Shown here: positions 15,828-42,866 of the stretch, one piece after another
How the letters are laid out: every line of letters starts with the position of its first letter
Numbering within the stretch: the stretch's first letter is position 1
Made by a program: the position numbers and the translations under genes
Assembly (NCBI GenBank): GCA_050486185.1
Contig: JBJHCT010000001.1
Coordinates: 178,866 to 242,865, forward strand
Length of the DNA stretch: 64,000 bases
Direction of reading: 5' to 3'
DNA from: Candidatus Saccharimonadota bacterium
GTDB taxonomy: Bacteria; Patescibacteriota; Saccharimonadia; QS-5-54-17
Notes under the pieces: model-generated
Database searches by the model: none
Told to the model about the DNA's origin: nothing
What the model saw: the letters and a program-made list of their open reading frames with translations, nothing else

Positions 15828-16424
15828 TCATCGTGTCACCACTCTCCATCCAAAAACTCGCGTATTACCAGATGGATTATACAGTTCCAGTTTCATGCTC
15901 GATGCAGCCTTAGCTGCAAACAAAGCACTTAGGCCAAATGAGTCACCATTGGCGGCTGTACCATCAGACACTCGACCCAGCGATGAAGTAGTTCGATTTA
16001 TTGCCACTGTGTCATCAATCGTTAGGCGTACGCCTACACCAAAGCCCTGGATCGATCCACCAATCAGCTCAACTGGCACGGCAATATCAAAGATTGTGTG
16101 ATATGAGCTTGCTGATACTGACTGAGAAGTACCTTCGTGAAAGGTTAGCTCTCCTGCGTCTGCGGCTGTGATTGGTAGTACTACAGACTCCCCAATCTGC
16201 CCCTCAACCCATTGCTTATTAGCAACATCAGTGTCATTGACTGGATCTGCTACTTGCAATCTACCCCATTCATCATAGGCTGCTAGCCTACTACCTCCTG
16301 CTGTTGTTCCATCATGTACTCTAAGAGTTTTATTAGTAGTATCTACTGTAACTTCTCTAGCTGCTCCAGTGAAGCTATCGTTATCTGTATTACTACCACC
16401 TCTTAGTTGTACTTGGTCGGGCAT
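15828..16424 (-). CDS. Tail-fibre-repeat (HylP-type) paralog #1: conserved N-module plus unique C-terminal domain
   Basis: N-terminus MPDQVQLRGGSNTDNDSFTGAAREVTVDTTNKTLRVHDGTTAGGSRL matches the phage tail fibre repeat pattern QLR.GT...E...DT..L..GDG.T. The 5' ~230 nt are near-identical to four other loci. Confidence 0.7.
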   Translation of the reverse strand: MPDQVQLRGGSNTDNDSFTGAAREVTVDTTNKTLRVHDGTTAGGSRLAAYDEWGRLQVADPVNDTDVANKQWVEGQIGESVVLPITAADAGELTFHEGTSQSVSASSYHTIFDIAVPVELIGGSIQGFGVGVRLTIDDTVAINRTTSSLGRVSDGTAANGDSFGLSALFAAKAASSMKLELYNPSGNTRVFGWRVVTR

Positions 16425-16450
16425 AATCTACCTTTTTATATATAACCCTT

Positions 16451-16480
16451 ATACTAAACCAAATACTCTGGAGTAGTCAA
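16451..16480 (-). promoter_or_regulatory. Sigma70-like promoter of fibre paralog #1 (TTGACT-N18-TAGTAT)
   Basis: On the reverse strand: TTGACTactccagagtatttggttTAGTAT, then about 30 nt and an AAAAGGTAGA Shine-Dalgarno sequence before the ATG. Confidence 0.4.
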
Positions 16481-16487
16481 TTTTAAG

Positions 16488-16525
16488 ATCAAATAAAAAA
16501 ACCACTACCCTTTTAAAAGTAGTGG
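16488..16525 (-). terminator. Rho-independent terminator downstream of rplL
   Basis: Reverse-strand hairpin CCACUAC-loop-GUAGUGG followed by UUUUUUUAUUU, about 37 nt after the rplL stop. Confidence 0.6.
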
Positions 16526-16561
16526 TTAATTACCCCCTAACCCTAAAGAAGTTTTTTAGCC

Positions 16562-17020
16562 CTAGGCTAGCTCTACGCTAGCACCAGCTTCTTCTAGCTT
16601 AGCTTTGGCTTCTTCAGCTTCTTCCTTAGGCGCGTTTTCTTTAACTGCCTTTGGAGCGCCATCAACTATAGCTTTACTTTCAGCTAGGCCTAGTCCGGTA
16701 ATTTCACGAACTGCCTTGATGACGTTGATCTTGCTAGCACCAGCGTCAGTTAGAGTGATAGTAAACTCACTCTTTTCTTCTGCTGCGCCACCTTCAGCGT
16801 CTCCACCAGCTGCTGGAGCAGCGGCAACTGCCATAGGAGCAGCTGCTGATACACCGAAGTGCTCTTCTAGAATCTTAACTAGTTCGCTTAGATCTAGAGC
16901 GCTCAAGCTTTCTATATCTTTAACTATACTAGCAAACTTTTTAGGTATCTCTACCTTAGTTTCTTCTTTAGTCTCTTTAACTTCCTTAGTATCTTTAGTT
17001 TCTTTCTTATCTTCTGCCAT
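16562..17020 (-). CDS. rplL: 50S ribosomal protein L7/L12 with Lys/Glu-rich N-terminal extension
   Basis: ...[22 protein letters not shown]...[22 protein letters not shown]... is a conserved L12 core. It follows rplJ. Confidence 0.9.
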
Positions 17021-17048
17021 TTTAATCTCCTTATTTCTTAGTATTAAA

Positions 17049-17573
17049 TTAACTTTTAGCTTGGGCCGCTTTATCTAGTACTGTAACTAGACCTCGCAAG
17101 TTGCCCGATAGTACACCAACAAAGCCAGATAGTGGCGCGGCGATAGTGCCAACAAGCTGAGCTTGCAACACTTCTTTGGCCGGTAGATCAGCTAGTCGCT
17201 TGATCTCCTCAGCCGATAGTACTGTTCCTTGATCATCTATAGCCATGATCGGCTTTAGACTCTCATGTTTCTTGGCGTGTTCTGAGATAGTTTTAGCTAC
17301 TGCAACTGGATCGTTGTAGCCAAAAGCCATAACTACTGGGCCCTCTAGCTCGGATAGGTCCACATCTTTATGGGTTTCAGATACGGCAATCTTCAACATA
17401 GCGTTTTTAACTACTCTGAAGTTACCGCCTTGTTCCTTGATGGCCTTTCGAAGATTCTGAGAATCTTCTACAGATAGGCCGGTGTAGCTAGATAGAACAC
17501 TTAGACTGCTTTTGCTAAGCTCATCTTTGATATCGGCTACTTGAGCCTCTTTTGCTTGTCTGGATATAGCCAT
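17049..17573 (-). CDS. rplJ: 50S ribosomal protein L10
   Basis: L10-like sequence, immediately upstream of rplL. Confidence 0.85.
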
Positions 17574-17617
17574 AAACTATATTCTCCCTATATATTTAGT
17601 TGATTTTTTAAGTGAGC

Positions 17618-17658
17618 ATAAAAAAAGTCTTTGGATTATCGACCAAAAACCAAAGACC
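17618..17658 (-). terminator. Hairpin plus U-tract in the rplJ leader (attenuator/terminator candidate)
   Basis: Reverse strand: GUCUUUGG-15 nt-CCAAAGAC followed by UUUUUUUAUGC, about 45 nt upstream of the rplJ start. Confidence 0.4.
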
Positions 17659-17868
17659 TATCTTTTATCCTTTTTTAGATAGTTACAAAAATATCTATTA
17701 CTAGACCTTTTTTGGTAACTTTCACCTAGGTAGTCTGATTTATTAAGTTCTTTGTTACAAGAACGGCTACGGTCTTTGGCTCACTAGGGATTAATATACA
17801 CTTTAAATAGGCTATTTGTCAAAAAATCCTTCCTAAAAGTTGGCAACAATTGTATACTTCTTCGAGTT

Positions 17869-18513
17869 ATGAGTATAGATGACCAACAATCAGACAACAC
17901 CTTAAGTAGCGATATCGACGCTAAAATTGCCAAGGATATGACTAAGGTAGACTATGAGCAGAAGATCGCTGAGCTAGAGGCGAAAATAGAAGAGCTAGAG
18001 GGTCGAGTAGTGACCGACTTTCTAACCGGTATCTATAATCGGCGCGGCTTAGAGGCATTGATGAACCGTGAATGGAACAGAATTAAAAGACTAGATAGCC
18101 CTAAAAGCCAAATCTTTTCTATAATCTGTATCGATAAGGACAATTTTAAAAGTATTAACGACAAATACGGCCACCTAAGTGGTGATATAGCCCTAAAGTC
18201 CATCGCCGAGCTATTAGAATCGTCCGTGCGAGAAAGTGATATCGTGGCTAGGTTTGGTGGCGATGAGTTTGTAGTAGTGCTACTTTCAACCGATACTGAA
18301 GAAGCTAAGCGGATAGCCGATGAGCTTGTTGATGTAGTAGCTAAGAACAAGATCACTAGTATTGATGGTAGGGACTTCTACTGCAAGATGTCTGCTGGTG
18401 TAAGCACCTATAAAGACCATCAAGATTGGCGCGAAGTCCTACATGAAGCCGACCAGGCGCTACTACAAGTCAAGGCTAAAGATAAAGGCAGAGCCCTTGC
18501 TTACGAGGTTTAA
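17869..18513 (+). CDS. GGDEF-domain diguanylate cyclase with N-terminal coiled coil
   Basis: Contains GIYNRRGL and the RFGGDEF active-site motif. Confidence 0.85.
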   Translation: MSIDDQQSDNTLSSDIDAKIAKDMTKVDYEQKIAELEAKIEELEGRVVTDFLTGIYNRRGLEALMNREWNRIKRLDSPKSQIFSIICIDKDNFKSINDKYGHLSGDIALKSIAELLESSVRESDIVARFGGDEFVVVLLSTDTEEAKRIADELVDVVAKNKITSIDGRDFYCKMSAGVSTYKDHQDWREVLHEADQALLQVKAKDKGRALAYEV

Positions 18514-18707
18514 ATATCCTCTTGTATTAACTGCTTCCAGGTTTTGTAGTTGACAAGAGCCACTTATATCGAGTAATTTAGTTGGTATGTCAGTGCAACC
18601 AATCAATAGAATCATGTTTAGCAGTTCTCCGCTTAGCGGTCTGGTGCTAATTGTGGGTGATATTAGATAGGTTGAAGCCTCTGGCATAAAAAAGTTAAAG
18701 AAATAAC

Positions 18708-18746
18708 AATCCCGGGACTTCAACCAAGAAGCCTCGGGATTTTTAA
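18708..18746 (+). terminator. Terminator-like hairpin after the GGDEF gene
   Basis: AATCCCGGGACTTC-6 nt-GAAGCCTCGGGATT with 3 internal mismatches, followed by TTTTAATTT. Confidence 0.4.
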
Positions 18747-18882
18747 TTTAAAGTGTTTTGATGAAAGCTTTTATCGATAACGATAATAAAAGTTTTCATG
18801 GAATCGCTTCAAAGATTCCAATATTCTTGAGGGGCAACCTTCAGGATGTACATCAACAAAGCGGGAGAAAGGCAGATGAGGG

Positions 18883-19293
18883 ATGGATGCTATCGCGCAA
18901 CAAGAAGTGACTACTGACCCTTGGAGGTATCCGATGTTCGATCCCAAGTACGACAACAGCAACACTCAGCGTCGCCATATGTTGGCGGTCGGCCGAATTC
19001 CTAGACTGATTGGCGATCTAAAGAAAGGCAAAAGAACTCTCGACGAGAAGTTCGTGCGCCTTCTCTACTCGGAGTATCGGGCCTACTGGCGAAGTCGCCA
19101 TCCTTTCCACATGCGGCTGCAGCACTGTCAGATGAAGGAGACCGGTGCCTTCTATGGCTGGTCTCTTGGCAAAATTTTGGAGTACCTCAGCACTCCAGAT
19201 GACACCACCAAGGAGGGTGCTTGCGAGGCTGTATGCATCCTCAGAAATTCCGTCAAGGCTAATGTGGTTGATGACTTACTGGCTCTTAGCTAG
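18883..19293 (+). CDS. Hypothetical basic (Arg/Trp/His-rich) 136-aa protein in a GC-shifted islet
   Basis: ORF is visibly GC-richer than its flanks. Has the SD-like GGGAGAAAGG upstream. No recognisable family. Confidence 0.3.
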   Translation: MDAIAQQEVTTDPWRYPMFDPKYDNSNTQRRHMLAVGRIPRLIGDLKKGKRTLDEKFVRLLYSEYRAYWRSRHPFHMRLQHCQMKETGAFYGWSLGKILEYLSTPDDTTKEGACEAVCILRNSVKANVVDDLLALS

Positions 19294-19394
19294 AGCCTCA
19301 GACACCACTACTCCCCGGGATTGAGGCTGCAAAGGATGTACTTATCTAGTGAGTAACCCTTACTAGCTTTGGACATCGTGCCTCTTTCCCGACT

Positions 19395-19453
19395 GGGGCG
19401 GCGAGTCATAGTCATGTGGATGATAGATCCATCCTAGGCTGACTCGCCGCCCC
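19395..19453. repeat. Perfect 14-bp GC-rich inverted repeat (GGGGCGGCGAGTCA ... TGACTCGCCGCCCC) with 31-nt loop
   Basis: Read directly from the sequence. No U-tract on either side, so it is not a canonical intrinsic terminator. Confidence 0.6.
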
Positions 19454-19474
19454 TAACCAAACACTTCTCCCGCT

Positions 19475-21172
19475 TTAACTTCTATCTAGTAATTCACTAG
19501 TATTATCATAATTTGGCTTTACTGCTAATCCCTTTTTTCTTTGTGTGTAAGTAGAGTCAGCTAAAGTTTCTGCCATATCGAAAGTGGCATCTCTATAGCC
19601 ATAATCTCCACCTGGACGTATTCGTAAATGAGTTAGGTAGTCCCACTGCATAAGAGGGCCACTCATTAGTAATCTAGACTGATGTCCTAGTGGTAGTACG
19701 TGTTGCATAAAACCATAGTCTTGATCTGGGCCTAAGACAGTTTTTATATCTTCATAAAATCTATAGATATTATCATAAAGATCTACCATGTCTTGATTCC
19801 ACTCATCTTCCACAGACCTAAGGCTACTGGTTCTAGAGATGACATGGCTACGATTGAACCCAGTTCTAATTACGGCATCGTGGTTATCGGTCTCTAGCAT
19901 AGTTGCTAACCTGCCCATGGCTCGGTGCCTATTGAAGTCTCTTTGATAGGCTAGCGCAGTATCTATATCCATAACATGACCGCGTATATCAGCAGCGTTG
20001 CGTAAGATATTATGATGCGTGTGATCATTAAAGATAGTTCTTAGTAGATCGGCCTGCTCAACTTCTGGTAGTTGGTTGACAAATCCTAGCGCTTCATCGA
20101 ACCCTATATTAGGCAAGATAGTCATGATATAGCCAGCAACTACTTCATTTCCTGGACGAATTGCAGCATTAGCTTCAATAAGTTCTACGGATGTTTCTTG
20201 AGGACTTGGAGTAGTTTGCAGTCTAGATAGAGATAACTCTTTAAGACGACTAAACTCCGGTGTTTGATCCAGTGACTCTTTGAGTCTTTCGGTATTTTTA
20301 CTAATAGTATCAGAGCCTTTAGCGTACTTAAGTAGTCCTGCTAAATCGGCCTGTATATCCTCGCTGCCTTCGTAGCGTTTTAGGCTGAGCAGTGTAGTTA
20401 GTTGGTCTGCTAATCTTTGGCCATAGAAATCTTGACGTTGATCAAGCTGAGTAATTAAGCTGATAGCTTCTCTGACATCAAACTGCAAGGACATACTAGT
20501 TCTACCGCCAAACGGTATCCAAGCTCTAGCAGCATCCAAAGCTCTTTTGTCCATAGCCCCCTCTTTAGCATCTGGATGCTCTTTTCTAACAAAGTCCATC
20601 AATCCATCTTTTATAATAGGGAACCATTTAGCGAAACCATCGTGAGCTTGACGTTGCAAAACCTCCCAATCCGTCACTAACTGCTGCCTGCGAGCATCTT
20701 CTAAGCCGCTAATATCTACTAGGCTTTCTAGGGCGGTAACTGTTGGGTTCTTCAGCTCGACATATCTAGTAGAGGTTTCTTGACCTCCTACCAAAACCAA
20801 GTGGTTGAATATCCAATATGCCTCGCTCATAGGCAGGTTATTTAGATGCACCATAAGTGGGCTCATGTTGGCTATCGATTGGTGTCCATATCCAAAAAAC
20901 ATATCGATCTTTTCTGAATGGGTTACGTCTCTTATCTCTGCGTAAATACCTTCATGAGGGTCATCACTGCGAGAAGTTCTAGCGCCAGCCCACGGTATGG
21001 CTGCATGAACATCATATCCATCATTAAACTCTACGAACACAGCTGTAATGTCGGTCTCTGAGCTTTTTACATTAAATAGCCTTACACCGGTTTCTTTCGG
21101 GTCAGATACCGATAGCTCGTATTCTGGCGGTAGTTGTTGTGATTCTGGCTTGGTGGTTGTTTGTTCTGACAT
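19475..21172 (-). CDS. ThyX-like (FAD-dependent thymidylate synthase family) protein, expanded/tandem architecture
   Basis: N-half GHQSIANMSPLMVHLNNLPMSEAYWIFNH...GQETSTRYV aligns with the ThyX GHE..FEH...RHR...S.RY region, but has FNH in place of RHR. C-half has NRHRAMGRL and a VLPLGHQSR...YLTHLR tail like ThyX. Confidence 0.5.
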   Translation of the reverse strand: MSEQTTTKPESQQLPPEYELSVSDPKETGVRLFNVKSSETDITAVFVEFNDGYDVHAAIPWAGARTSRSDDPHEGIYAEIRDVTHSEKIDMFFGYGHQSIANMSPLMVHLNNLPMSEAYWIFNHLVLVGGQETSTRYVELKNPTVTALESLVDISGLEDARRQQLVTDWEVLQRQAHDGFAKWFPIIKDGLMDFVRKEHPDAKEGAMDKRALDAARAWIPFGGRTSMSLQFDVREAISLITQLDQRQDFYGQRLADQLTTLLSLKRYEGSEDIQADLAGLLKYAKGSDTISKNTERLKESLDQTPEFSRLKELSLSRLQTTPSPQETSVELIEANAAIRPGNEVVAGYIMTILPNIGFDEALGFVNQLPEVEQADLLRTIFNDHTHHNILRNAADIRGHVMDIDTALAYQRDFNRHRAMGRLATMLETDNHDAVIRTGFNRSHVISRTSSLRSVEDEWNQDMVDLYDNIYRFYEDIKTVLGPDQDYGFMQHVLPLGHQSRLLMSGPLMQWDYLTHLRIRPGGDYGYRDATFDMAETLADSTYTQRKKGLAVKPNYDNTSELLDRS

Positions 21173-25390: not shown

Positions 25391-25519
25391 TTTGTCAATA
25401 ATACTACTATTTTTAGTAGTGGTCAACGTTTTATTGTGGTTTATAACATGAGCAACACTTCTTCTTTGTTTTCTAGTTTGGTCTTGTATCTATTGGGTGT
25501 CAAATATCCCAGTGACTGT

Positions 25520-26885
25520 CGAATGGTTCCGGGTTGCCTTGCATCTCGAAAGTTCCCGCGTCGAGGTCACAGACGATAAGCACGGTCATGGTGTCCTCCT
25601 ACGGCTCGATTGGATAGCGGATGTAGGCGACCCCGCGTCCACCGCGACCCGAAAAGGGACCTGTGTTACCAGCCGCACCGCCGCCACCTGCGCCTGTACC
25701 ATGCGTTCCGGCACCGCCTGTGGGAGACGCATCGCTACCTCCTGCGCCGCCGCCGCCAGCACCACCGGCACCGCCAGCATCACGACCGCCCCCGCCGCCG
25801 CCACCGCCGCGAATGACGCTCGACCCGGTGAAGTCGGATGACTCCCCGGCCCCACCGGCACCACCTGTCGTCCACGTCGGGCCGTTCGCCCCCGCCGCCG
25901 AGGTTCCACCGCCACCGCCGCCCGAGTCGTCAGCCGAGCCGTCGCCACCGTCGTTCCCTTGACCTGATGATCCACTGCCCCCGGTTGAACGAGATGCTCC
26001 ACCGCCTCCTGAACCTCCTGAGCCACCAACCTGCTGCCCCGAACCAAAAGTACCCCCACCACCGCCGCCACCAGTTGCAGTCACACCCGCAAACGTCGTG
26101 TTCGAGCCTGCATTACCTCGCCCACCGCCGGTTACACCGGCACCTTCTGCACCGACCACCACGGGGTAGACGGAAGCCGCGACCGGGACACTGCCCGTGC
26201 GCCGACCACCGGCACCGCCACCGCCACCGCCACGGATACCCGAAGATCCGCCACCAGCGCCGCCTCCAGCGACCAGGTAATACTCGACTTCTTCGTCCGT
26301 ACCCGGATCTAGAACCGTAAAGTTGGCTGACCCCGCCGCCGCGAACGTATGAAGCCTATACTGCCGACCGTCGATGGTGATGGTCGACTCGGTGCCGCCA
26401 GTTGCCGAGACAGAAACCCACACATCAGACGCAATGATCCCGCGACGAAGCAGCCGCATCAGGTGACCGCCTGTGCGCCGGTCATAACCCACTCGTTCGT
26501 AGCGTGCTTCGTGAGCACCGCCGTGCCGTACCGGTCGAGCGTCCCCGCTAGACGAACCGTAACCCCAGAGCCACCCACGACGGTCACGCCACCTGCACCG
26601 GCCGCATAGACCTCGATCACACTGCCCACCACAAACGCGACCGACGAGTTAGGCGGGACAGTGACAGTCACCGCGGCGGTATTGGTGAACCGCTTGACCG
26701 TCCCCGCGTCGGCCAGGGCGAGTGTGTAGGTCGTGCCCGATTCGTCAGAGAGCGCGACAGACGCGACAGAGTCGCCAATCTGTCCATCTACGTAGCCCTT
26801 GTTGGCGATATCAGCATCATCGACAGGATCGGCTACTTGGGCGCGACCCCACTCGTCATAGACTAGGAGCTTATGCCCACCAGCT
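25520..26885. other. About 1.36 kb strongly GC-rich island of foreign composition (by eye roughly 65-70% GC vs ~40% flanks; not computed)
   Basis: An abrupt shift to GCC/GGC/CCG-dominated sequence. The low-GC sequence resumes at ~26885 inside fibre paralog #2, and at ~25520 inside a 30-codon ORF. Confidence 0.8.
25599..26459 (-). CDS. Glycine-rich protein resembling minor tail proteins of actinobacteriophages
   Basis: Has ...TITIDGRQYRLHTFAAAGSANFTVLDPG...YYLVAGGGAGGGSSG, then long poly-Gly tracts, ending VAYIRYPIEP. A start at 26459 gives a TGATG stop/start overlap with fibre #2. The ORF track shows an alternative start at 26492. Other ORFs in this region are GC-mirror artefacts. Confidence 0.5.
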   Translation of the reverse strand: MRLLRRGIIASDVWVSVSATGGTESTITIDGRQYRLHTFAAAGSANFTVLDPGTDEEVEYYLVAGGGAGGGSSGIRGGGGGGAGGRRTGSVPVAASVYPVVVGAEGAGVTGGGRGNAGSNTTFAGVTATGGGGGGGTFGSGQQVGGSGGSGGGGASRSTGGSGSSGQGNDGGDGSADDSGGGGGGTSAAGANGPTWTTGGAGGAGESSDFTGSSVIRGGGGGGGGRDAGGAGGAGGGGAGGSDASPTGGAGTHGTGAGGGGAAGNTGPFSGRGGRGVAYIRYPIEP

Positions 26886-27007
26886 GTTGTTCCATCATGT
26901 ACTCTAAGAGTCTTATTAGTAGTATCTACTGTAACTTCTCTATTAACGCCAGTAAAAGCATCGTTCTCTGCTTCGGTTCCACCTCTTAGTTGTACTTGGT
27001 CTGGCAT
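26459..27007 (-). CDS. Tail-fibre-repeat paralog #2: chimeric, with low-GC conserved N-module fused in frame to a high-GC C-terminal domain
   Basis: First ~40 codons are nearly identical in nucleotides to the other paralogs. From ...HDGTTAGG|HKLLVYDEWGRAQ the protein stays homologous (DEWGRAQVADPVDDADIANKGYVDGQIGDSV), but the DNA becomes GC-rich. Confidence 0.7.
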   Translation of the reverse strand: MPDQVQLRGGTEAENDAFTGVNREVTVDTTNKTLRVHDGTTAGGHKLLVYDEWGRAQVADPVDDADIANKGYVDGQIGDSVASVALSDESGTTYTLALADAGTVKRFTNTAAVTVTVPPNSSVAFVVGSVIEVYAAGAGGVTVVGGSGVTVRLAGTLDRYGTAVLTKHATNEWVMTGAQAVT

Positions 27008-27053: not shown

Positions 27054-27083
27054 ATACTAAGTTAGTGGGGTGAGTTTAGTCAA
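27054..27083 (-). promoter_or_regulatory. Promoter of paralog #2 (TTGACT-N18-TAGTAT); 5'UTR shared with paralog #5
   Basis: Reverse strand: TTGACTaaactcaccccactaactTAGTAT. The downstream UTR ...caacaataatccataaggatttaggaagagtaactaac matches the paralog #5 UTR. Confidence 0.4.
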
Positions 27084-27641: not shown

Positions 27642-27851
27642 TTATTCTTCCTCCTGAGTTTGATCCTCTTCCTCAGGCTGATCTTCTTCAGGGGCTATAA
27701 ACTCACCATCTCTATAAGTCCAGCCTGGGCCGGCTGCACCGGTTACTTCTATTAGTTCTGTGCCTTCTGGTGGTGTGTATTGCGCTTCACCATCCCAAAC
27801 TATAACGTTAGTGACATTGCCGCTTTTGTCTACTACTGCATATCTTCCCAT
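27642..27851 (-). CDS. Small hypothetical protein with acidic C-terminal tail
   Basis: 69 aa: MGRYAVVDKSGNVTNVIVWDGEAQYTPPEG...EEEDQTQEEE. Confidence 0.3.
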   Translation of the reverse strand: MGRYAVVDKSGNVTNVIVWDGEAQYTPPEGTELIEVTGAAGPGWTYRDGEFIAPEEDQPEEEDQTQEEE

Positions 27852-33269: not shown

Positions 33270-33932
33270 TTAGGTCGTGATTCCTAAATCAACTACCATC
33301 TGCCAGACTGGGCGTACAGGATCCCCTACAGTGAAGGTTCCAACAGCAGGATTCCCGCGTGTCTTGAGCGTCATAGGTGAACCTGTCCCTACAAAAAGAT
33401 GTTCACAATAGGCAGAAACATTGCCCGATGCATTTGCGGCGTTATAGATTGCGACTTGCTGTTGGCCGTTCGATCCGTTAGTGATAGTCATATTGCCGCG
33501 ACCAGCAGTTGATCCGGTTAGGACTACCGCGAAAGCCCGATAGGCATATAGGCGGCCAGTCTCGGTATTAAACGTGAACTCAGAGCCAACTAAATCGACA
33601 GAGGCTCCTTCTGAAACAATCTGTTGTGTAGTACGAATATTAAACGCAAATCCTCCTGTACCCCCAGATGTTGCAGATACTACACCGTCGGGCTTGGGAG
33701 TAATAACCCCATCCACATAGCTCTTGTTAGCTACATCAGTGTCATTAACTGGATCTGCTGTTTGCAGCCTACCCCATTGATCATAAGCTGCTAGTTTACT
33801 TCCACCTGCTGTTACTCCATCATGTACTCTAAGAGTCTTATTAGTAGTATCTACTGTAACTTCACGTTGTGCTCCTGTGAAGTTATCATTATCTGTGCTG
33901 CTTCCACCTCTTAGTTGTACTTGGTCGGGCAT
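33270..33932 (-). CDS. Tail-fibre-repeat paralog #3 (real start at the MPDQVQLRGG Met, not the longer track ORF)
   Basis: Conserved N-module; unique C-terminal ~140 aa (jelly-roll-like, GC-richer). An upstream TTGTCT-N17-TATTAT promoter-like element is present. Confidence 0.7.
   Translation of the reverse strand: MPDQVQLRGGSSTDNDNFTGAQREVTVDTTNKTLRVHDGVTAGGSKLAAYDQWGRLQTADPVNDTDVANKSYVDGVITPKPDGVVSATSGGTGGFAFNIRTTQQIVSEGASVDLVGSEFTFNTETGRLYAYRAFAVVLTGSTAGRGNMTITNGSNGQQQVAIYNAANASGNVSAYCEHLFVGTGSPMTLKTRGNPAVGTFTVGDPVRPVWQMVVDLGITT
33727..33863. repeat. Arm 1 of a ~137-nt near-identical inverted repeat (5' coding module of paralog #3)
   Basis: About 3 mismatches to the reverse complement of 34976..35112. 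Confidence 0.7.
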
Positions 33933-34068
33933 AGTGTGTTTACTACCTTTTATAGAATTATATATCATAAGCATAATACTAAATTTATTACTGTTAGACA
34001 ATCTAAAATAAAATCTATCAAACTACTTCTATGGAGTTTGATAGTAAGTTGGTTATAATATTGTCTGT

Positions 34069-34143
34069 GCCCTGATAGCTCAGTGGTAGAGCGCTTCCAT
34101 GGTAAGGAAGAGGTCGCGAGTTCAATCCTCGCTCAGGGCTCCA
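34069..34143 (+). tRNA. tRNA-Thr (anticodon GGU)
   Basis: GCCCUGA acceptor, D-arm AGCUCAGUGGUAGAGC, anticodon loop AUGGUAA, T-arm GAGUUCAAUCCUC, CCA. Confidence 0.8.
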
Positions 34144-34217
34144 TATTAAAATAAATAGTTTTTGCTATAATCAGAAGCTGTTAGTATTCGTTTCTTTCCT
34201 GATGATACAATTATTAC

Positions 34218-34628
34218 ATGTCCCTATGTAAGAATTGCAGTACAGGATTAAACAGATTATCTAGTGTTTATTGTTCTAATAAATGCCAGAAAAATTACGA
34301 ATATGCTACGTACATTAAAAAGTGGAAACAAGGTAAAGTTACTGGTAGCAGAGGGGTTGATGCTAAGAATATTTCTAGGCATATTGTTAGATACCTAATC
34401 AGCAAGTATGAAGGTAGATGTGTAGAATGCGGCTGGAACAAGCTTCATCCAGTTACAGGTAACGTTTTACTAGAAGTAGATCATATAGATGGTGACTCGG
34501 ACAATAATCAGGAAGAGAATTTGCAGTTATTGTGTCCAAATTGCCATTCACTTACTAGTACATACAAAAATCTTAATAATGGTATGGGCAGAGAATGGAG
34601 AAGGTCTAAGTATATAAAATCTTCTTAG
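34218..34628 (+). CDS. HNH endonuclease with N-terminal zinc ribbon
   Basis: CKNCSTG...CSNKC ribbon, and the HNH core CVECGWNKLHPVTGNVLLEVDHIDGDSDNNQEENLQLLCPNCHS. Confidence 0.85.
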   Translation: MSLCKNCSTGLNRLSSVYCSNKCQKNYEYATYIKKWKQGKVTGSRGVDAKNISRHIVRYLISKYEGRCVECGWNKLHPVTGNVLLEVDHIDGDSDNNQEENLQLLCPNCHSLTSTYKNLNNGMGREWRRSKYIKSS

Positions 34629-34636
34629 TGTTTTTT

Positions 34637-34712
34637 GCCACCTTAGCTCAGTTGGTAGAGCAACGCTCTTGTAAAGCGTAGGTCGTCGGTTCGAGCCCGA
34701 CAGGTGGCTCCA
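34637..34712 (+). tRNA. tRNA-Thr (anticodon UGU)
   Basis: GCCACCU acceptor, anticodon stem ACGCU/AGCGU with loop CUUGUAA, T-arm GGUUCGAGCCC, CCA. Confidence 0.8.
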
Positions 34713-34728
34713 TAAATAACATACATAT

Positions 34729-34815
34729 GCCAGGGTAGCGAAGCGGCCAAACGCATCTGACTGTAAATCAGACGGCTTCATGCCTTCGGGGGTTCGAATC
34801 CCTCCCCTGGCACCA
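34729..34815 (+). tRNA. tRNA-Tyr (anticodon GUA), long variable arm
   Basis: GCCAGGG acceptor, anticodon loop CUGUAAA, extended variable arm, T-arm GGUUCGAAUCCC, CCA. Confidence 0.8.
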
Positions 34816-34821
34816 CATAAT

Positions 34822-34851
34822 TTGACTGTTGTGCCCTAACTACCCTATTAT
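34822..34851 (+). promoter_or_regulatory. Promoter of paralog #4 (TTGACT-N18-TATTAT)
   Basis: TTGACTgttgtgccctaactacccTATTAT. The AAAGGTAGA Shine-Dalgarno lies 8 nt before the ATG. Confidence 0.4.
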
Positions 34852-34906: not shown

Positions 34907-35587
34907 ATGCCCGACCAAGTACAACTAAGAGGTGGTACAGAAGCAGAGAATAATAACTTCACAGGAGCAGCCAGAGAAGTTACAGTAGATACTACTAATA
35001 AGACTCTTAGAGTACATGATGGAGAAACAGCAGGAGGAAGTAAACTAGCAGCTTATGATCAATGGGGTAGGCTGCAAACAGCAGATCCAGTTAATGACAC
35101 TGATGTAGCTAATAAGCAGTGGGTTGAAGGGCATGTTAGTGGTGCTGCTACTCGTCGCGCACTTGTGATTCGCGATGATGTTCAAACAATCCCTAATGCC
35201 ACCACTACAGCAATGATATTCCAGACAGAGGTTTATGACGACGATGGCATGTTTGATATCGGATCACCAACCATGCTTGTTGTGCCATCCGGTGCGTCGA
35301 AAGTACGTGTGTCCGCTAGCGTGGTATGGGGAAGTAATGCAGACGGTCTGCGACAAGCGTTTATTGAACGCGACACTGGTGCAGGATTTACTGCGAGCTA
35401 TAACGGAGTAGCCCGGTTCGCAATGGACCCCGGGACTTCCAATCAGGCTTACTGGACAATGGCGACTGCCTGGATTGCATGTGATCCAGGTGATAAGTTT
35501 CAATTAGCTGTGCATCATACACGAGGAACCACTCTGCAAATGCAAGGCAGTGGTCTAACATGGATGATGATGGAGATATTAACATAA
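34907..35587 (+). CDS. Tail-fibre-repeat paralog #4
   Basis: Conserved N-module (MPDQVQLRGGTEAENNNFTGAAREVTVDTTNKTLRVHDGETAGG). Unique GC-richer C-terminal ~150 aa. Confidence 0.7.
   Translation: MPDQVQLRGGTEAENNNFTGAAREVTVDTTNKTLRVHDGETAGGSKLAAYDQWGRLQTADPVNDTDVANKQWVEGHVSGAATRRALVIRDDVQTIPNATTTAMIFQTEVYDDDGMFDIGSPTMLVVPSGASKVRVSASVVWGSNADGLRQAFIERDTGAGFTASYNGVARFAMDPGTSNQAYWTMATAWIACDPGDKFQLAVHHTRGTTLQMQGSGLTWMMMEILT
34976..35112. repeat. Arm 2 of the ~137-nt inverted repeat (5' module of paralog #4)
   Basis: Near-identical to the reverse complement of 33727..33863. Confidence 0.7.
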
Positions 35588-37822: not shown

Positions 37823-37864
37823 CAGCTAGTATAGCAGTTGAAACCTAAGGGCTTTAAGTAGGTT

Positions 37865-38281: not shown

Positions 38282-38708
38282 CGAGCTTTAGCTCCTCTGG
38301 TTGCTGAGCTTCGTGAGTATGCTCTGCCCCTGGGAACACTTTTAGTCTCAACATTCTACCGTCCCGTAGTTTATTGCTGGGCAGCATTCCTCTAACTGAG
38401 CTGATTATAACTTGGGTGGAGTCTTTATCTAGCTGCTCACTCAAAGTACGTGACTTGATGCCTCCTGGGTAGCCACTGTGTCTGTAGTAGGTTTTAGCAG
38501 CTAACTTATTACCGGTAGTTTTAACCTTATCAGCGTTAATAACGATAATGTGATCACCACCATCAATATGCGGTGTGTAGCTAGCTTTATGTTTACCCAT
38601 CAAGTATTTAGCAACTACAGTTGATAGTCTACCTAACACTACGTCTTTAGCATCAACAACATACCATTTTCTAGCAACTTCAACCGGTCTTTGTGAGTAA
38701 GTTTTCAT
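38259..38708 (-). CDS. rplM: 50S ribosomal protein L13
   Basis: L13-like sequence, paired with rpsI. Confidence 0.9.
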   Translation of the reverse strand: MKTYSQRPVEVARKWYVVDAKDVVLGRLSTVVAKYLMGKHKASYTPHIDGGDHIIVINADKVKTTGNKLAAKTYYRHSGYPGGIKSRTLSEQLDKDSTQVIISSVRGMLPSNKLRDGRMLRLKVFPGAEHTHEAQQPEELKLDGKKERS

Positions 38709-39238
38709 TATTTATCCTCTTTCTTTTTGGCAGCAGAAGCCTTCTTAGCAGCAGGTTTCTTGGTTGTCGTTTTAGTTGCCGTCTTAGCGGTTGATTTAGC
38801 AGCGGTAGTCTTTTTAGTAGTGTCGGCTGTCTTTGTTGTAGATTTAGCAGTAGTAGCAGGCTTAGTAGCTGGTTTCTTGCTGTCTTCTTTAACAAAGCTA
38901 ATTGTAGCCATCTCGGTATTATCACCTCTGCGCCAACCGGCCGACTCAATCCTTAGATATCCGCCAGGTCTAGTCTTAAACCTAGGTCCTAAATCAGAAA
39001 ACAACTTATCTAGTGACTCTTTGGTGCTGATTTTACTCAAAACCAATCTGCGGTTGTGTTGGTTATCAACCTTAGCTTTAGTTATCAGCTTCTCAACGTA
39101 AGGTCTTAGAGCCTTAGCTTTAGGCTTAGTGGTCTTAATACTCTCATGAGTTATTAGAGACTCAGTTAAAGTCTTTAATAGGGCTCGGCGCTGATCGCGC
39201 TTTCTGGATAGTTTATGTCTTTGCGCTGGCAGTGACAT
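38708..39238 (-). CDS. rplQ: 50S ribosomal protein L17 with Lys/Ala/Thr-rich C-terminal extension
   Basis: L17 core ...RPGGYLRI..., then a low-complexity tail. Follows rpoA. Confidence 0.9.
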   Translation of the reverse strand: MSLPAQRHKLSRKRDQRRALLKTLTESLITHESIKTTKPKAKALRPYVEKLITKAKVDNQHNRRLVLSKISTKESLDKLFSDLGPRFKTRPGGYLRIESAGWRRGDNTEMATISFVKEDSKKPATKPATTAKSTTKTADTTKKTTAAKSTAKTATKTTTKKPAAKKASAAKKKEDK

Positions 39239-40146
39239 TATTTTAGCTCCAGTTCCTTTAGCTTACTTATAACTTCATCTAGGGCCTTAGCGCCGAAGCC
39301 CTTTAGGCCTTTAAGGTCAGAATCATTCATGGCAGCTAGTTGCTTCAGTGTGACTACACCGTTTTTCTCTAATGCATTGAAAGTGCGTTGTGAAAAGTCT
39401 AGATCAGCTACGCTGATGTTTAGATCTTCTGGCTCTTCTTCTGGCTCTTCTACTTCGGCTACAGCATTGCCACCGGCTATGACGTTGAATTGGTTAACTA
39501 GGATAGTAGAGGCTTGTTCTAAGGTGTCTCTAGGATCGATAGTACCATCAGTTTCTATACTGATAATTAGCTTGTCTAGGTCGGTAACTTGTCCGACACG
39601 AGTGTTCTCTACCTTGTATCTAACCTTTTTGATAGGTGAGAATAGGGCATCAAGTCCGATCATGCCTACACCAAAGTTTCCAGCCTGCTCATCAACTGTC
39701 TGATAACCGCGGCCTTTCTCTACCTGTAAGCTCATCTCTAGTTTAGATTTGTCGTTATCTAAAGTAGCAATGATTTGATCAGGGTTGACTACTTCAACCT
39801 CAGAACTACCTTCTAAATCAGCAGCCGTTACAGGGCCTTTGCCCTTTTTGCTGATTTTAAGAGTTTGTGGTTCATCGCTGTAGACTTTGAATCTAATCTT
39901 CTTTAGGTTCAAGCTGATGATCACTACATCTTCTTTAACACCATTTAGAGTGGTGAACTCATGGGTTGCTCCATCAACACTAAAGGCAGTAGCTGCTGCA
40001 CCGCTTAGTGAGGAAAGTAGCACTCGACGCAGTGAGTTGCCGATAGTAACACCGAAACCCCTGTGTAAAGGCTCGATAGTGTACTCACCGACAAAATCGC
40101 TTTCGTCTATAATCTTAACTTCTGGCAAATGAATATTGTATTGCAT
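39238..40146 (-). CDS. rpoA: DNA-directed RNA polymerase subunit alpha
   Basis: N-terminal domain ...GFGVTIGNSLRRVLLSS..., and a C-terminal domain with the HhH-like ...NGVVTLKQL.... Confidence 0.9.
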   Translation of the reverse strand: MQYNIHLPEVKIIDESDFVGEYTIEPLHRGFGVTIGNSLRRVLLSSLSGAAATAFSVDGATHEFTTLNGVKEDVVIISLNLKKIRFKVYSDEPQTLKISKKGKGPVTAADLEGSSEVEVVNPDQIIATLDNDKSKLEMSLQVEKGRGYQTVDEQAGNFGVGMIGLDALFSPIKKVRYKVENTRVGQVTDLDKLIISIETDGTIDPRDTLEQASTILVNQFNVIAGGNAVAEVEEPEEEPEDLNISVADLDFSQRTFNALEKNGVVTLKQLAAMNDSDLKGLKGFGAKALDEVISKLKELELK

Positions 40147-40168
40147 ATATTTCTCCTTCTTTTCTTGC

Positions 40169-40774
40169 TTATCTTGAGTAAAACTCTACTATTAATTGTT
40201 CATTGATCTCAGGCTCTGCCTCATCACGATTAGGTAGACCTGTTACTTTAGCGCTCATCTTACTTTTATTAAAAGAAAGCCAACTTAATTCTGGAGATCC
40301 TTCAATAGTAAGTGACTGGAAGTAAGTGTTTTTCGCACTTTTCGGTCTAATCGTAATCTCATCACCTGGCCTGACTCTAATAGAAGGTATATCTACGCGG
40401 CGTCCATTAAGCATAATGTGGCCATGAGTAACTAGCTGACGAGCTGATTGACGAGAAGTAGCTAGTTGCAGCCTATAAACTACATTATCTAGACGTCTTT
40501 CTAGGTATTGCAATATCAATTCACCGGTTACGCCTTCGCCTTTTTCGGCCTCTTTAACTAATTTACGGAACTGCTTTTCAAGTAGTCCATAGATTCTTTT
40601 GACCTTCTGCTTTTCACGTAACTGCGTAGCATACTGGGTAGGCTTTGATCTTCTAGCACCGGCATTTTCTCCCGGTAGGGACTTTCGCTTGGCCATAATC
40701 TTGTGAGCTTTAGGATGCAAAGCTACACCTTCTCTACGACTTCTTTTAGCAATCGGCATTAAATCTCTAGCCAT
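40169..40774 (-). CDS. rpsD: 30S ribosomal protein S4
   Basis: S4 N-terminus plus an S4 RNA-binding domain, in alpha-operon order. Confidence 0.9.
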   Translation of the reverse strand: MARDLMPIAKRSRREGVALHPKAHKIMAKRKSLPGENAGARRSKPTQYATQLREKQKVKRIYGLLEKQFRKLVKEAEKGEGVTGELILQYLERRLDNVVYRLQLATSRQSARQLVTHGHIMLNGRRVDIPSIRVRPGDEITIRPKSAKNTYFQSLTIEGSPELSWLSFNKSKMSAKVTGLPNRDEAEPEINEQLIVEFYSR

Positions 40775-40777
40775 ATC

Positions 40778-41173
40778 TTAAACCCTTCTAGCCTTTCTAG
40801 GCCTACAGCCGTTGTGTGGCACACCTGTAACGTCTTTGATACTAGTTACATTGATATCAGTATTCATCAGCGCTCTAATGGCTGCTTCTCGGCCCTGGCC
40901 AATACCTTTAACAAACACCTGAACCTGCTTCATACCGAAAGGCTTAACTTTCTCAGCAGCATTCTCACTAGCTAGCTGGGCGGCATAGGCAGTGCCCTTA
41001 CGAGATCCTTTAAAACCACTAGCACCAGCTGAGGAAGAAGCTAGTGTATTACCCTTGTTATCGGTAAAAGTAACTATGGTGTTATTAAAACTAGCGAAAA
41101 CATGCACCTGGCCGGTTGGGACAGATTTCTTCTGCTTTGCTTTAGTAGTAGTCTTTTTTGTAGCTTGAGCCAT
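40778..41173 (-). CDS. rpsK: 30S ribosomal protein S11
   Basis: Conserved S11 sequence and position. Confidence 0.9.
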
Positions 41174-41205
41174 TAAATATTACCTCTTTTATACCTTTCT
41201 TGATC

Positions 41206-41592
41206 TTAAGTTGGCGTTGGAGCCTTATTTTTCGCACCACCAACTGTCATTCTCTTGCCTCGTTTAGTTCTAGCGTTGGTCTTGGTTCTTTGTCCTCGTA
41301 CCGGTAGTCCTGCTTTGTGTCTCATACCTCTGTATGAGTTGATTTCTCGAAGACGAGAAATACTAACTCTAATACGTTGAGCAAGATCTCCCTCAACTTC
41401 GTAATCTTTATCGATAATTTCACGGATCTTACTTAGCTCTGTTTCTGATAAATCTTTGATTCTGACATTCTCATCTACTTTAGCTTTAGCTAGTATCTTT
41501 TGAGAGTTTGCTCTACCAATGCCGTAAACGTATGTCAGCGCAATAACTGCTCTTTTATCATCTGGAATGTTAACTCCTGCTATTCTAGCCAT
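41206..41592 (-). CDS. rpsM: 30S ribosomal protein S13
   Basis: [14 protein letters not shown] start is typical of S13. Confidence 0.9.
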
Positions 41593-41595
41593 TTT

Positions 41596-41709
41596 TTATC
41601 CTTGCCTCTGCTTATGTTTAGGGTTTACGCATATAACACGCACCACGCCCTCACGGCGAATAACTTTGCATCTGGCGCAAATCTTCTTGACGCTAGCTTG
41701 AACTTTCAT
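41596..41709 (-). CDS. rpmJ: 50S ribosomal protein L36
   Basis: Translating the reverse strand by hand gives [37 protein letters not shown] (37 aa). Missed by the ORF track. Confidence 0.85.
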
Positions 41710-41727
41710 ATTAAGCGTTTAAACCCC

Positions 41728-41949
41728 TTATTTATGTCTATAGGTGATTCTGCCCTTCTCTAGATCGTAAGGTGTCATTTCAACTGTCACCTTGTCCCCG
41801 GGCACAATCTTGATGTAGTGCATTCTCATTTTTCCAGCAATAATGCCTGTTATCTCGTGTCCGTTTTCTAAACGCACACGAAACATTGCGTTTGGCAACG
41901 TTTCTAGAATTGTTCCTTCAAATTCTACAACCTGCTTTTTGCTGGCCAT
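41728..41949 (-). CDS. infA: Translation initiation factor IF-1
   Basis: 73-aa S1-like OB protein; [15 protein letters not shown] is typical of IF-1. Confidence 0.9.
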
Positions 41950-41980
41950 AAGCTACAAGACTCCATTATAAGTAGTGGAC

Positions 41981-41998
41981 AGGGGTTTGTAAACCCCT
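41981..41998. repeat. Copy 1 of an 18-nt GC hairpin AGGGGTTTGTAAACCCCT
   Basis: Identical 18-mer recurs at 59277..59294. It folds as AGGGG-loop-CCCCU. Confidence 0.6.
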
Positions 41999-42206
41999 AT
42001 TTCACAACTTTTTTTATTTGTATTAATTAGCACTATATCACTAGTGGTAGGGATTTGCAAGGATATTAGTTTTGGATAAGCAAAGAATATGTGCTTAATT
42101 AATATCTGGAAATCTTGGATTTGAATAGTGATTACTCTAACGCAACACTCCTGGATCTCTCGCTAGAAGGAGGGTAATACCGTTATTGTTGGCATTTAAA
42201 CCACCA

Positions 42207-42866
42207 CTACATCTTCTCTGCAACAACAGTAATTACCCGATTCCTAAAAGTACTAGTGGCCGAAGATGTCGCATACTTTGCGGTAAACGTAGTAGTACCG
42301 GGGTTCAGCCCGCTAAGCAAAAACGTTCTGGAAGCCGTACCATGTCCTGACCCGGCCCAGGAATTCCCTATAGCACTACGGCTTTGCGCTGTCAGCCCTC
42401 CCCAAGTATCCCCAGCGGCGTATGTATTTGTTCCAGTCGCTGCAAGGTTCATTGACGTCACAACACCAGCACCCGAACCCCACATAAAGGCACTCAGCGA
42501 TACCAGGACTTTACCAGATGCTGGTACGTCGATTTCAATAGAAGGACCAACAGTGGCTAAATCAGTAAAAGATGTGCTAGTGGTTGACTCTTGTGCTGCT
42601 GTTTCTGAACCCTCGAAGCTTATTCCAGACTCTTCAACCACCCCATCTACATAACTCTTGTTAGCTACATCAGTATTATTGACTGGATCTTCTACTTGCA
42701 GCCTACCCCATTCATCATAAGCTGCTAGTCTACTTCCTCCTGCTGTTTCTCCATCATGTACTCTAAGAGTCTTATTAGTAGTATCTACTGTAACTTCACG
42801 GCTTACTCCAGTGAAGCTATCGTTATCGTTTGCTGTACCACCTCTTAGTTGGACTTGGTCGGGCAT
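42207..42866 (-). CDS. Tail-fibre-repeat paralog #5, inserted between secY and infA
   Basis: Conserved N-module. Unique Ser/Thr/Gly-rich, GC-richer C-terminal ~140 aa. Confidence 0.7.
   Translation of the reverse strand: MPDQVQLRGGTANDNDSFTGVSREVTVDTTNKTLRVHDGETAGGSRLAAYDEWGRLQVEDPVNNTDVANKSYVDGVVEESGISFEGSETAAQESTTSTSFTDLATVGPSIEIDVPASGKVLVSLSAFMWGSGAGVVTSMNLAATGTNTYAAGDTWGGLTAQSRSAIGNSWAGSGHGTASRTFLLSGLNPGTTTFTAKYATSSATSTFRNRVITVVAEKM

Follow-up and report, generated by a model that had tools for sequence, protein, structure and literature searches.

A 64,000-nt stretch of a Candidatus Saccharimonadota genome (contig JBJHCT010000001.1, positions 178,866 to 242,865; hereafter the window) carries a family of five small genes, here named c1 to c5, in which a constant phage-fibre base is joined to C-terminal domains that are unrelated to one another. 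Each product is 180–240 aa long and consists of an Mtd_N beta-prism, a helical neck and an unrelated C-terminal tip. In sequence searches, four of the five C-terminal domains match distal ends of phage proteins of the tail or spike, or of various proteins that resemble fibres; c3 has no such match. The bases and promoters appear to be kept alike within the genome by gene conversion, and the c2 tip lies in a block of high-GC DNA whose matches indicate capture from an actinophage-like donor. We are highly confident of this anatomy and of the evolutionary process described below. A prior reading of the window from its letters alone (the sequence-only reading) had proposed a constant phage-fibre module with exchangeable foreign tips, and this is borne out by the finding of Mtd_N in all five copies and of phage-tip matches in four.

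All five open reading frames (ORFs) are intact where the sequence-only reading had placed them (Table 1), all start with MPDQVQLRGG, and only c4 lies on the plus strand. They can be aligned over 76 codons, up to ...ANK.[YW]V[DE]G, and past this point the ungapped identity is 25–33%, the chance level, so that the earlier placing of the boundary just after ...VANK(Q/S)(W/Y)V(E/D)G was correct. The identity of 90–98% claimed for the 5′ ~200–230 nt was too high: over the 228 nt of the N-module the copies are 75–89% identical, differing at 11–25% of positions, and identical tracts are only local. A 48-nt core of the N-module is the sole direct-repeat family of at least 40 nt in the window, occurring five times (four exact, one with a single mismatch) where shuffled sequences give an expectation of zero. 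At least one more copy (P0007) lies outside the window on the same 264,553-nt contig. The c2 protein is identical to database record P0001, and NCBI starts c3 at an upstream ATG, giving a protein of 234 aa (P0012).

The family membership of the base is clear from both sequence and predicted structure. Residues 5–41 of all five proteins cover positions 1–37 of the 37 in the Pfam profile PF18454 (Mtd_N), with scores of 40.4–50.4 bits (E = 2.7e-10 to 2.1e-13) that exceed the gathering threshold of 26.3 bits, and the N-terminus aligns with residues 3–51 of BPP-1 Mtd (E = 4e-9, 55–60% identity). The AlphaFold2 (AF2) model of c2, with a predicted local distance difference test (pLDDT) score of 88, superposes on the Mtd structures 1yu0–1yu4 over 43 columns at 60% identity and a root-mean-square deviation (rmsd) of 2.0–2.4 Å. 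Its other top fold matches are all phage spike or fibre proteins, namely the Pa223 capsid spike, the KP1 baseplate and the N-terminal domains of CBA120 TSP4. In both AF2 models (c2 and c5) a helix spans residues 64–78, within the conserved neck (...DP..D.D.ANK.YVDG...). PHROGs assigns the N-terminus to a ‘tail protein’ family, and the other PHROG tail families match only the C-terminal ends. The HylP-type repeat suggested by the sequence-only reading was rejected: the module is Mtd_N, and HylP gives no more than marginal matches at the neck (2wh7, E = 0.3; by fold 2c3f, 2yvv and 6x3m, E ≥ 0.28).

Many tail-protein genes of viral contigs begin with Mtd_N, at no more than ~75% identity and over ~45 residues. 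The exact 26-nt core of the N-module is absent from the 2.9 million viral contigs of IMG/VR, and NCBIfam has no family for any of c1 to c5. A metagenome scan with the N-module returned 80 loci, all at or below 79% identity and mostly restricted to the first ~50 residues; with identities this low and coverage this partial, the scan is not usable as a census of the family. A literature search returned no description of it.

The sequence-only reading had also suggested ongoing gene conversion among the copies. This is supported by mosaic tracts of identity and by the excess of within-genome over between-genome identity, which extends to synonymous sites. Thus c3 and c4 are 100% identical at nt 70–205 of the gene and 70–83% identical before nt 70, c2 and c5 share their 5′ untranslated region (5′UTR) and diverge after nt 115, and c1 and c4 have the QWVEG neck in common. 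N-modules of the same genome are 85% identical, against 77% between genomes, and the corresponding values at third codon positions are 77% and 63%. Most N-module pairs have dN/dS ratios of 0.17–0.38; in the most recently converted pairs, c3/c4 and c4/c5, the ratio is 0.7–0.8. The GC content at third positions (GC3) of the N-modules, 0.21–0.24, is well below the gene background of 0.36, and the amino acid differences between paralogues cluster at residues 11–22 and 40.

By sequence match, at least two of the tips, those of c2 and c5, trace to phages of Actinobacteria, and the c1 tip probably forms a third. The c2 tip matches the minor tail protein family phrog_8780 (1.6e-16) and is 39–47% identical to the last ~140 aa of minor tail proteins of Gordonia phages such as Bizzy gp40, whose gene lies just before those of a second minor tail protein and an endolysin. 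Its closest relative, P0003 (65% identity over 128 aa by BLASTP, 74% over a 113-codon alignment core), is the fibre of a phage-like contig of 67% GC, L014, on which tail proteins, the fibre, a 410-aa gene, a 99-aa gene, an amidase, a holin-like gene and a repressor follow one another. The tip is modelled as a beta-sandwich. The c5 tip matches a different minor tail protein family, phrog_7565 (1.9e-25), and each of its 85 matches in the phage collection comes from a Mycobacterium phage. In cluster G mycobacteriophages the matching part lies inside the last ~110 aa of gp22. This protein forms the tail spike of BPs, a cluster G phage in which gp22 substitutions alter adsorption, host range and dependence on trehalose polyphleates (PMC10465359). 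In the AF2 model (pLDDT ~90) this tip is a TNF/C1q-like jelly-roll, as the sequence-only reading had anticipated for the family, and Foldseek matches it to TNF-like lectins, the binding domain of the cyanophage A-1(L) short fibre and the tail-needle knobs of Sf6 and HS1; the best full-length fold match is Chlamydia Pgp3 (4jdm).

The closest relative of the c5 tip, P0190 (79% identity), is encoded between the portal and protease genes of contigs L159–L162. From its GC content of ~48%, L159 was suspected to be a phage of Saccharimonadia, an origin rejected on account of its Streptomyces-phage portal, gene order and GC. The portal is 47–48% identical over 99% of its length to portals of Streptomyces phages (Stanwilliamsviridae), the contig is syntenic with Faust, and the corresponding Faust region has a GC content of 46.7%. 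Since portal identity, gene order and GC all agree with Streptomyces phages, the simplest reading of L159 is that of an actinophage. Mtd_N, mtd_2nd, Gly_rich_2 and collar proteins are likewise encoded on this contig.

The remaining tips are less uniform in their matches. The c1 tip has 70 representative homologues, in which it is always the C-terminal ~115 aa of proteins of 120–2000 aa, several of them with fibre-like N-termini; its family ends in the signature ...MKLE.YN....FGWRV.TR, and the phage-database search gave no match to it. The c4 tip matches phrog_13989 and phrog_11660, is ~30% identical to tail proteins of Staphylococcus, Caulobacter, cyanobacterial and Arcanobacterium phages, and aligns with the central spike of the staphylococcal phage phi812 (9eul/9euf, E = 4.5e-7). 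Comparison of c5 with P0190 gives proportions of nonsynonymous and synonymous differences (pN and pS) of 0.17 and 0.80, the latter saturated, and comparison of c2 with P0003 gives 0.20 and 0.64. With the protein conserved and synonymous sites saturated or nearly so, these sequence comparisons indicate that the tips have been under purifying selection. Among 17 fetched relatives with the same N-terminus there are many different C-terminal tails, ~10 types as judged by eye.

The claim that the C-terminal parts are GC-richer and foreign holds for all copies in total GC (0.48–0.65 vs. 0.42 ± 0.03 in other genes) and, at third codon positions, for c2 only. The GC3 of the c2 cassette is 0.76 against 0.36 ± 0.05 in 60 other genes (z = 8.8), and that of the c1, c3, c4 and c5 tips is 0.35–0.40. 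By third-position GC, c2 is therefore the only compositionally foreign member of the family, and the raised total GC of the other four tips, whose GC3 is native-like, reflects a composition rich in Gly, Ala and Thr. The high-GC block that contains the c2 neck and tip begins at about nt 125–150 of the gene, right after Mtd_N, and stops abruptly before the native secE. Besides the tip it holds an intact Gly_rich_2 ORF, whose ATG overlaps the c2 stop codon (TGATG), and the stump of a third gene. The phage-database search gave no match for the Gly-rich ORF, a sequence of low complexity. In database protein P0060 the same N-module is fused directly to a Gly_rich_2 domain.

Among genomes that carry the family, the nearest is the Candidatus Saccharimonadales metagenome-assembled genome (MAG) LejiaB_40_21, which has five loci; the other named relatives are also Saccharimonadales MAGs. 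At two of the LejiaB loci (L001 and L002) GC rises from ~0.44 to 0.6–0.7 just after the N-module and drops to ~0.25 after the stop codon. A third, L005, has a family member, a 409-aa ORF and a truncated ORF that are collinear with three consecutive genes of L014, at identities of 37%, 48% (E = 6e-122) and 58%. Phage-database searches returned no match for the L001 tip or the 409-aa gene of L005. In all, a native N-terminal part with a foreign C-terminal part is found at three or four loci of this MAG. Together with the c2 block, this pattern leads us to conclude that the native N-module has time and again been joined to phage tail-gene DNA in contiguous pieces. The GC3 values form a series, from donor-type phage (0.88) through c2 (0.76), L002 (0.60), L001 (0.49) and c5 (0.39) to the background (0.36), which fits captures of different ages or from different donors. 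There is no synteny with LejiaB_40_21 at the family loci except in the HNH/tRNA neighbourhood; L005 adjoins a distantly related HNH gene and a tRNA-like sequence. On L002 the member with the 0.6–0.7 GC tip (3001–3969) lies between a putative penicillin-binding protein gene and a putative mraY, apparently in a cell-division and cell-wall cluster, so that, like the copies in the window, it sits inside a highly conserved core cluster. Conserved flanks of this sort may help such inserts to spread by transformation.

New tips would, on this evidence, arrive as contiguous phage tail-gene DNA that replaces everything downstream of the boundary between Mtd_N and the neck. One or two downstream phage genes would be dragged along, and the 3′ end would be an abrupt, illegitimate junction. 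A one-sided block of this anatomy fits homology-facilitated illegitimate recombination. The DNA may well have entered by natural transformation, for which Saccharibacteria are competent (PMC10633639), and then have recombined in that way.

As the source is a metagenome-assembled genome, and short-read contigs break at the repeat core, the family could in principle be an artefact of assembly or binning, in the form of a collapsed or duplicated gene or a chimeric high-GC join. We checked this against Logan contigs of run SRR31311414, made with an independent assembler, probably from the same read set as the assembly itself. They are 100% identical to the window. One (L013) runs through the ribosomal operon and secY and ends at nt 96 of c5, reproducing the secY–c5 junction; another (L076) starts at nt 96 of c2, covers the high-GC block in full together with the native DNA that flanks it at either end, and continues into secE, nusG, rplK and rplA. 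Both break in the exact-repeat core. Because these contigs reproduce the distinct loci and the high-GC block, the collapse of a single gene, which would have undone the sequence-only reading, and a chimeric join are both excluded. The five N-modules moreover differ from each other at 11–25% of positions and have five different flanks, and the MAG LejiaB_40_21 has the same pattern of native N-terminal and foreign C-terminal parts at three or four loci. The probability that is left to an artefact of either kind is negligible.

Homology and predicted folds suggest what these proteins might do. They may form a repertoire of trimeric receptor-binding proteins whose actinophage-derived tips serve to recognise actinobacterial hosts, and we give this reading an even chance. 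Homology to Mtd and the TNF-like and coiled-coil folds would make them homotrimers, the constant base would dock onto one common partner, and the tips would bind envelope glycans or glycolipids of the presumed actinobacterial hosts. The known hosts of cultivated Saccharibacteria are Actinobacteria (PMC10633639), including Gordonia (PMC11880426), and the donor-type phages, too, infect Actinobacteria. The sequence-only reading had seen no signal peptide, and indeed none of the five copies has an N-terminal hydrophobic stretch or transmembrane segment; the base thus most likely docks onto a structure assembled in the cytoplasm, or the proteins leave the cell by another route. A tail-like apparatus such as the ‘lance’ of Ca. 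Mycosynbacter amalyticus is no more than a candidate for the export or docking structure. More tentatively, and with doubt prevailing, we propose that in episymbionts of the candidate phyla radiation (CPR) host range is determined and altered by the capture of receptor-binding domains from the phages of their hosts. The phage DNA would enter by natural transformation and be spliced in behind the constant Mtd_N docking module, and the domains would be carried as a gene-converted repertoire on an attachment or injection structure.

Several observations weigh against this account, in part or as a whole. Its weakest point is that the proteins have no signal peptide, transmembrane segment or anchor motif, so that surface display is left unexplained. 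No docking partner was found in the window or beside the Mtd_N genes in 61 viral loci; when those loci were searched by tblastn with all proteins of the window, the family and the collar protein alone gave matches. Searches of 5.8 billion proteins, the phage database and the PDB returned no homologue of the c3 tip, and the matches of the c4 tip include, besides one actinophage, phages that infect Firmicutes, Caulobacter and cyanobacteria. An actinobacterial host is only presumed for the source organism, and we infer adhesin or tailocin function, export, surface location and binding alike from sequence. As to the route of capture, the family loci are not syntenic between the two genomes and in-place replacement of cassettes is therefore not directly shown. 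A donor of 67% GC and an N-module of 43% GC offer little nucleotide homology, which puts the recombination anchor in doubt, and the insertion of whole genes followed by conversion of their 5′ ends is equally possible.

The lack of a signal peptide would be normal if the proteins were parts of a phage, a tailocin or a contractile injection system. They might be interchangeable fibres of a phage-tail-like machine encoded elsewhere (a tailocin, a particle resembling a gene transfer agent (GTA), a prophage, or the lance or tube of M. amalyticus), assembled in the cytoplasm onto a baseplate via Mtd_N, and would then recognise targets as part of a particle or injection apparatus, not as free adhesins. 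Mtd_N is the docking and trimerisation base in a real virion, a homogenised N-module implies one common partner, and the other fibre-like genes of the window could supply shafts or further fibres. The tube that joins M. amalyticus to Gordonia, 8.6 nm wide and 61 nm long, spans the envelope in cryo-electron tomography (PMC11880426); a ‘tail fibre-like protein’ conserved near pam pilus operons in CPR genomes is mentioned in passing in a preprint (bioRxiv 10.64898/2026.03.03.709456), the supplement of which has no relevant entry. Set against this, genes for a tube, sheath, baseplate, tape measure, portal or capsid are all absent from the 64 kb, the family genes are monocistronic and scattered, each with its own promoter-like site, and the 26-nt core is missing from the 2.9 million viral contigs. 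We regard such a machine as rather unlikely.

Neutral decay and defence against phages would account for other parts of the evidence. That the genes are functionless phage debris or selfish ‘morons’, left over from repeated integration or transformation, would suit the apparently accidental passenger gene and truncated ORF at the c2 locus, the orphan c3 tip and the lack of synteny between genomes. It is nevertheless improbable, given that all five ORFs are intact, that N-module dN/dS is 0.17–0.38 and the tips are conserved as proteins despite saturation at synonymous sites, that a promoter-like site is kept in every copy and c1 is insulated by a terminator-like hairpin, and that two or more diverged genomes, along with several further MAGs, share this architecture. 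Highly improbable, in our view, is a role as anti-phage decoys, in which fibres with the wrong tip are built into phage progeny and misdirect the virions away from sister cells, or else mask the cell's own receptor. The predicted cytoplasmic location, the constant and homogenised docking module, the promoter-like site of the same form before each copy and the origin of the tips in phages of other bacteria would all be compatible with decoys. PADLOC, on the other hand, found no family for any of the five copies or the Gly-rich ORF, purifying selection on at least five distinct, intact tips is more than decoys would require, and no known phage has this N-module core.

The proteins belong to the Mtd_N family and are neither targets of diversity-generating retroelements (DGRs) nor members of the HylP or MAT proteins. 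In BPP-1 Mtd (1yu0; PF18454) Mtd_N is the trimerising base and the distal end sets tropism; the N-terminal ~45 residues are homologous to those described here, and in both cases Mtd_N stands at the very start of a small receptor-binding protein. Unlike Mtd, the present genes are chromosomal, multicopy and outside any phage genome, and they vary by whole-domain replacement among paralogues, not by mutagenic retrohoming. None of c1 to c5 contains a CLec, FGE or mtd_2nd Pfam domain, and the 64 kb hold no ORF with a YxDD motif and no template repeat. A Mtd-type DGR variable protein was accordingly ruled out, the tips being a beta-sandwich in c2 and TNF-like in c5, with no reverse transcriptase or template repeat in the window. 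Switching by inversion or from silent cassettes (as in Mu Gin, P1 Cin and pilE/pilS) was likewise rejected, since every copy has a promoter-like site and a start codon; the window contains no extra copies that are 5′-truncated or lack the N-module, and no invertase or integrase was found among the ORFs scanned.

The closest functional analogue is the MAT repertoire of Bdellovibrio bacteriovorus, which comprises 21 paralogues, trimers resembling phage fibres, in which the N-domain is invariant and the tips can be swapped; their location at the surface of the predator and their binding of prey glycans have been demonstrated (PMC10769870). Here too a bacterium living on bacteria has a fibre-like repertoire with a constant N-domain and exchangeable tips. 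MAT proteins are beta-helical fibres of ~600–1100 aa with a signal peptide, an N-domain of ~130 aa and, in many cases, an S74 chaperone-protease (PMC10769870), and this published description sets them apart from proteins of 180–240 aa with no signal peptide and a base of Mtd_N (~45 aa) plus neck. In contrast to MAT, at least two or three of the tips can be traced directly to phages that infect the presumed host phylum, and one of them has kept its foreign base composition. What is new relative to MAT is the occurrence in a CPR episymbiont, the shorter length, the phage Mtd_N base without a signal peptide, and captures that are still visible.

Three further comparisons are instructive. The modular exchange of phage fibre tips, as in actinophage minor tail proteins and BPs gp22, has the same conserved proximal part, exchangeable distal domains and tip families found on many shafts; here the recipient is a cellular chromosome, which retains several alleles together as paralogues, each with a promoter-like site of its own, within clusters of ribosomal-protein and tRNA genes. 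Domesticated phage-tail parts that are chromosomal and lack signal peptides are also seen in tailocins (R- and F-type pyocins) and GTAs, whose separately encoded fibres set target specificity; they differ from the present family, which has no tube, sheath, baseplate or lysis genes within the 64 kb and is not clustered. Chlamydia Pgp3 (4jdm), a small trimer of another host-dependent bacterium, has an N-terminal trimerising part, a coiled-coil neck and a TNF-like C-terminus; at 10–15% identity and a high full-length rmsd there is no evidence of common descent or function.

To our knowledge, pili are all that has been implicated so far in how the ultrasmall CPR bacteria (Patescibacteria) find and choose their hosts. 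If the proposed function is right, a genome could reveal its owner's host range through comparison of the tips with phage receptor-binding domains of known specificity, and the tip matches here would point to mycolic-acid Actinobacteria and their relatives. Direct gene flow from host phages to an episymbiont would be documented, with one event caught before amelioration, and the proteins would be small, soluble, modular binders that can be assayed and swapped in transformable Saccharibacteria. The finding widens the idea that bacteria living on other bacteria keep phage-fibre repertoires, so far tied to Bdellovibrio, to a lineage that is very distant and has another architecture, and makes host recognition by CPR bacteria directly testable.

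Table 1. Positions of the family genes and of other features within the window, numbered from its first nucleotide.
Feature	Position	Strand	Details
c1	15828-16424	-	198 aa; N-module 16197-16424; C-terminal domain 15831-16196; Mtd_N E = 5.7e-12
c2	26459-27007	-	182 aa; N-module 26780-27007; neck and tip compositionally foreign
c3	33270-33932	-	220 aa; N-module 33705-33932; orphan C-terminal domain
c4	34907-35587	+	226 aa; N-module 34907-35134; divergent from c3
c5	42207-42866	-	219 aa; N-module 42639-42866; TNF-like jelly-roll tip
Promoter-like site, c1	16451-16480	-	TTGACT-18-TAGTAT; consensus match only
Promoter-like site, c2	27054-27083	-	TTGACT-18-TAGTAT
Promoter-like site, c3	33973-34001	-	weaker, TTGTCT-17-TATTAT
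Promoter-like site, c4	34822-34851	+	TTGACT-18-TAnTAT
Promoter-like site, c5	42913-42942	-	TTGACT-18-TAnTAT
Terminator-like hairpin	16500-16527	-	12 bp; between rplL and c1
High-GC block	~25500-26880	-	~1.4 kb, 57-71% GC; c2 neck and tip, two passenger ORFs
Passenger ORF 1	25599-26459	-	286 aa, intact; Gly_rich_2 PF21722 3.6e-17; phrog_2295 1.7e-39; GC3 z = 4.6
Passenger ORF 2	25500-25589	-	29-codon stump of a third gene; own AGGAGGA ribosome-binding site
Small phage-family ORF	27642-27851	-	69 aa; phrog_14370 3.4e-14, function unknown; ~630 nt upstream of c2
Tail-collar protein	6333-7148	-	271 aa; PF07484 1e-26; phrog_523 1e-49
Insertion	52607-57555	-	~5 kb between rpsJ and rplC
Fibre-like ORF	52607-53656	-	tail-fibre C-terminus, phrog_2712, 3.4e-20
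Putative fibre-like ORFs	53747-54526, 54533-55408	-	34%-identical paralogues; common N-terminus; V..AIDE motif
tRNA/HNH cluster	34069-34815	+	tRNA-Thr/HNH/tRNA-Thr/tRNA-Tyr
HNH endonuclease gene	34218-34628	+	PF01844
S5-L15 junction	44282-45255	-	genes directly adjacent
Compositionally foreign ORF	18883-19293	+	136 aa; GC 0.52, GC3 0.61, z = 5.5
DUF2779 locus	1731-3888	-	350-aa DUF2779/Cas4-like nuclease-fold protein; 373-aa protein

The expression signals ascribed earlier to every copy are present in part (Table 1). The TTGACT-18-TAnTAT sites lie 27–56 nt upstream of c1, c2, c4 and c5; the site of c3 is weaker, and promoter-like sites overall are not in excess over shuffled sequences. A AAAGGTAG Shine-Dalgarno sequence precedes c1, c3 and c4 only, and c2 and c5 have a different 5′UTR. 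The statement that the latter two share ~70 nt of 5′UTR was accurate: this stretch, with the promoter, is 77–97% identical between them. An Rfam search of the window returned tRNAs only, with no match in the shared 5′UTR.

The copies sit beside tRNA genes and in ribosomal operons, in line with the earlier description. The gene upstream of c1 is rplL, from which the hairpin insulates it, and secE/nusG lie downstream of c2; c5 is placed between secY and infA/rpsM, and c3 and c4 flank the tRNA/HNH cluster on either side. The HNH endonuclease gene in this cluster stands between two tRNA-Thr genes, before tRNA-Tyr, and the c3 and c4 N-modules form an inverted repeat around the cluster of ~1 kb, with an identical tract of 135 nt. 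Between secY and infA, both adk and map are absent. The gene for uL30 is missing, S5 and L15 being directly adjacent; absence of uL30 is a typical CPR trait.

All ORFs of the window were read and about 35 scanned against Pfam and PHROGs, and in this survey of the 64 kb no capsid, portal, terminase, tube, sheath, baseplate, tape-measure or integrase/invertase gene was found. The sequence-only reading was right to report no capsid, portal, terminase or tube gene, and it overlooked a collar gene, the fibre-like ORFs and the small ORF upstream of c2, which resembles a 100-aa ORF of L159. The collar protein is 49% identical to that of L159. Its N-terminus, MARLPIPGEDIGTWGDILNEFL, is a second type of N-module, present also on P0081 and P0067, which bear a c2-type tip; since this N-terminus occurs with such a tip, it seems that two or more kinds of base take part in the shuffling of tips. 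The insertion between rpsJ and rplC contains an 88-aa membrane ORF, a 589-aa DUF3152 protein with an N-terminal transmembrane segment, and three fibre-like ORFs. One of these has a phage tail-fibre C-terminus; the two paralogues beside it may be fibre-like, as judged from sequence motifs, with weak or no matches in family searches.

Two further loci deserve mention. The foreign ORF at 18883, the second gene to stand out by its composition, is unrelated to the family and has no Pfam or PHROG match. At the start of the window, the gene for the DUF2779/Cas4-like protein overlaps that of a protein of unknown function beside tRNA-Gln, and this locus may be a small defence or mobile island.

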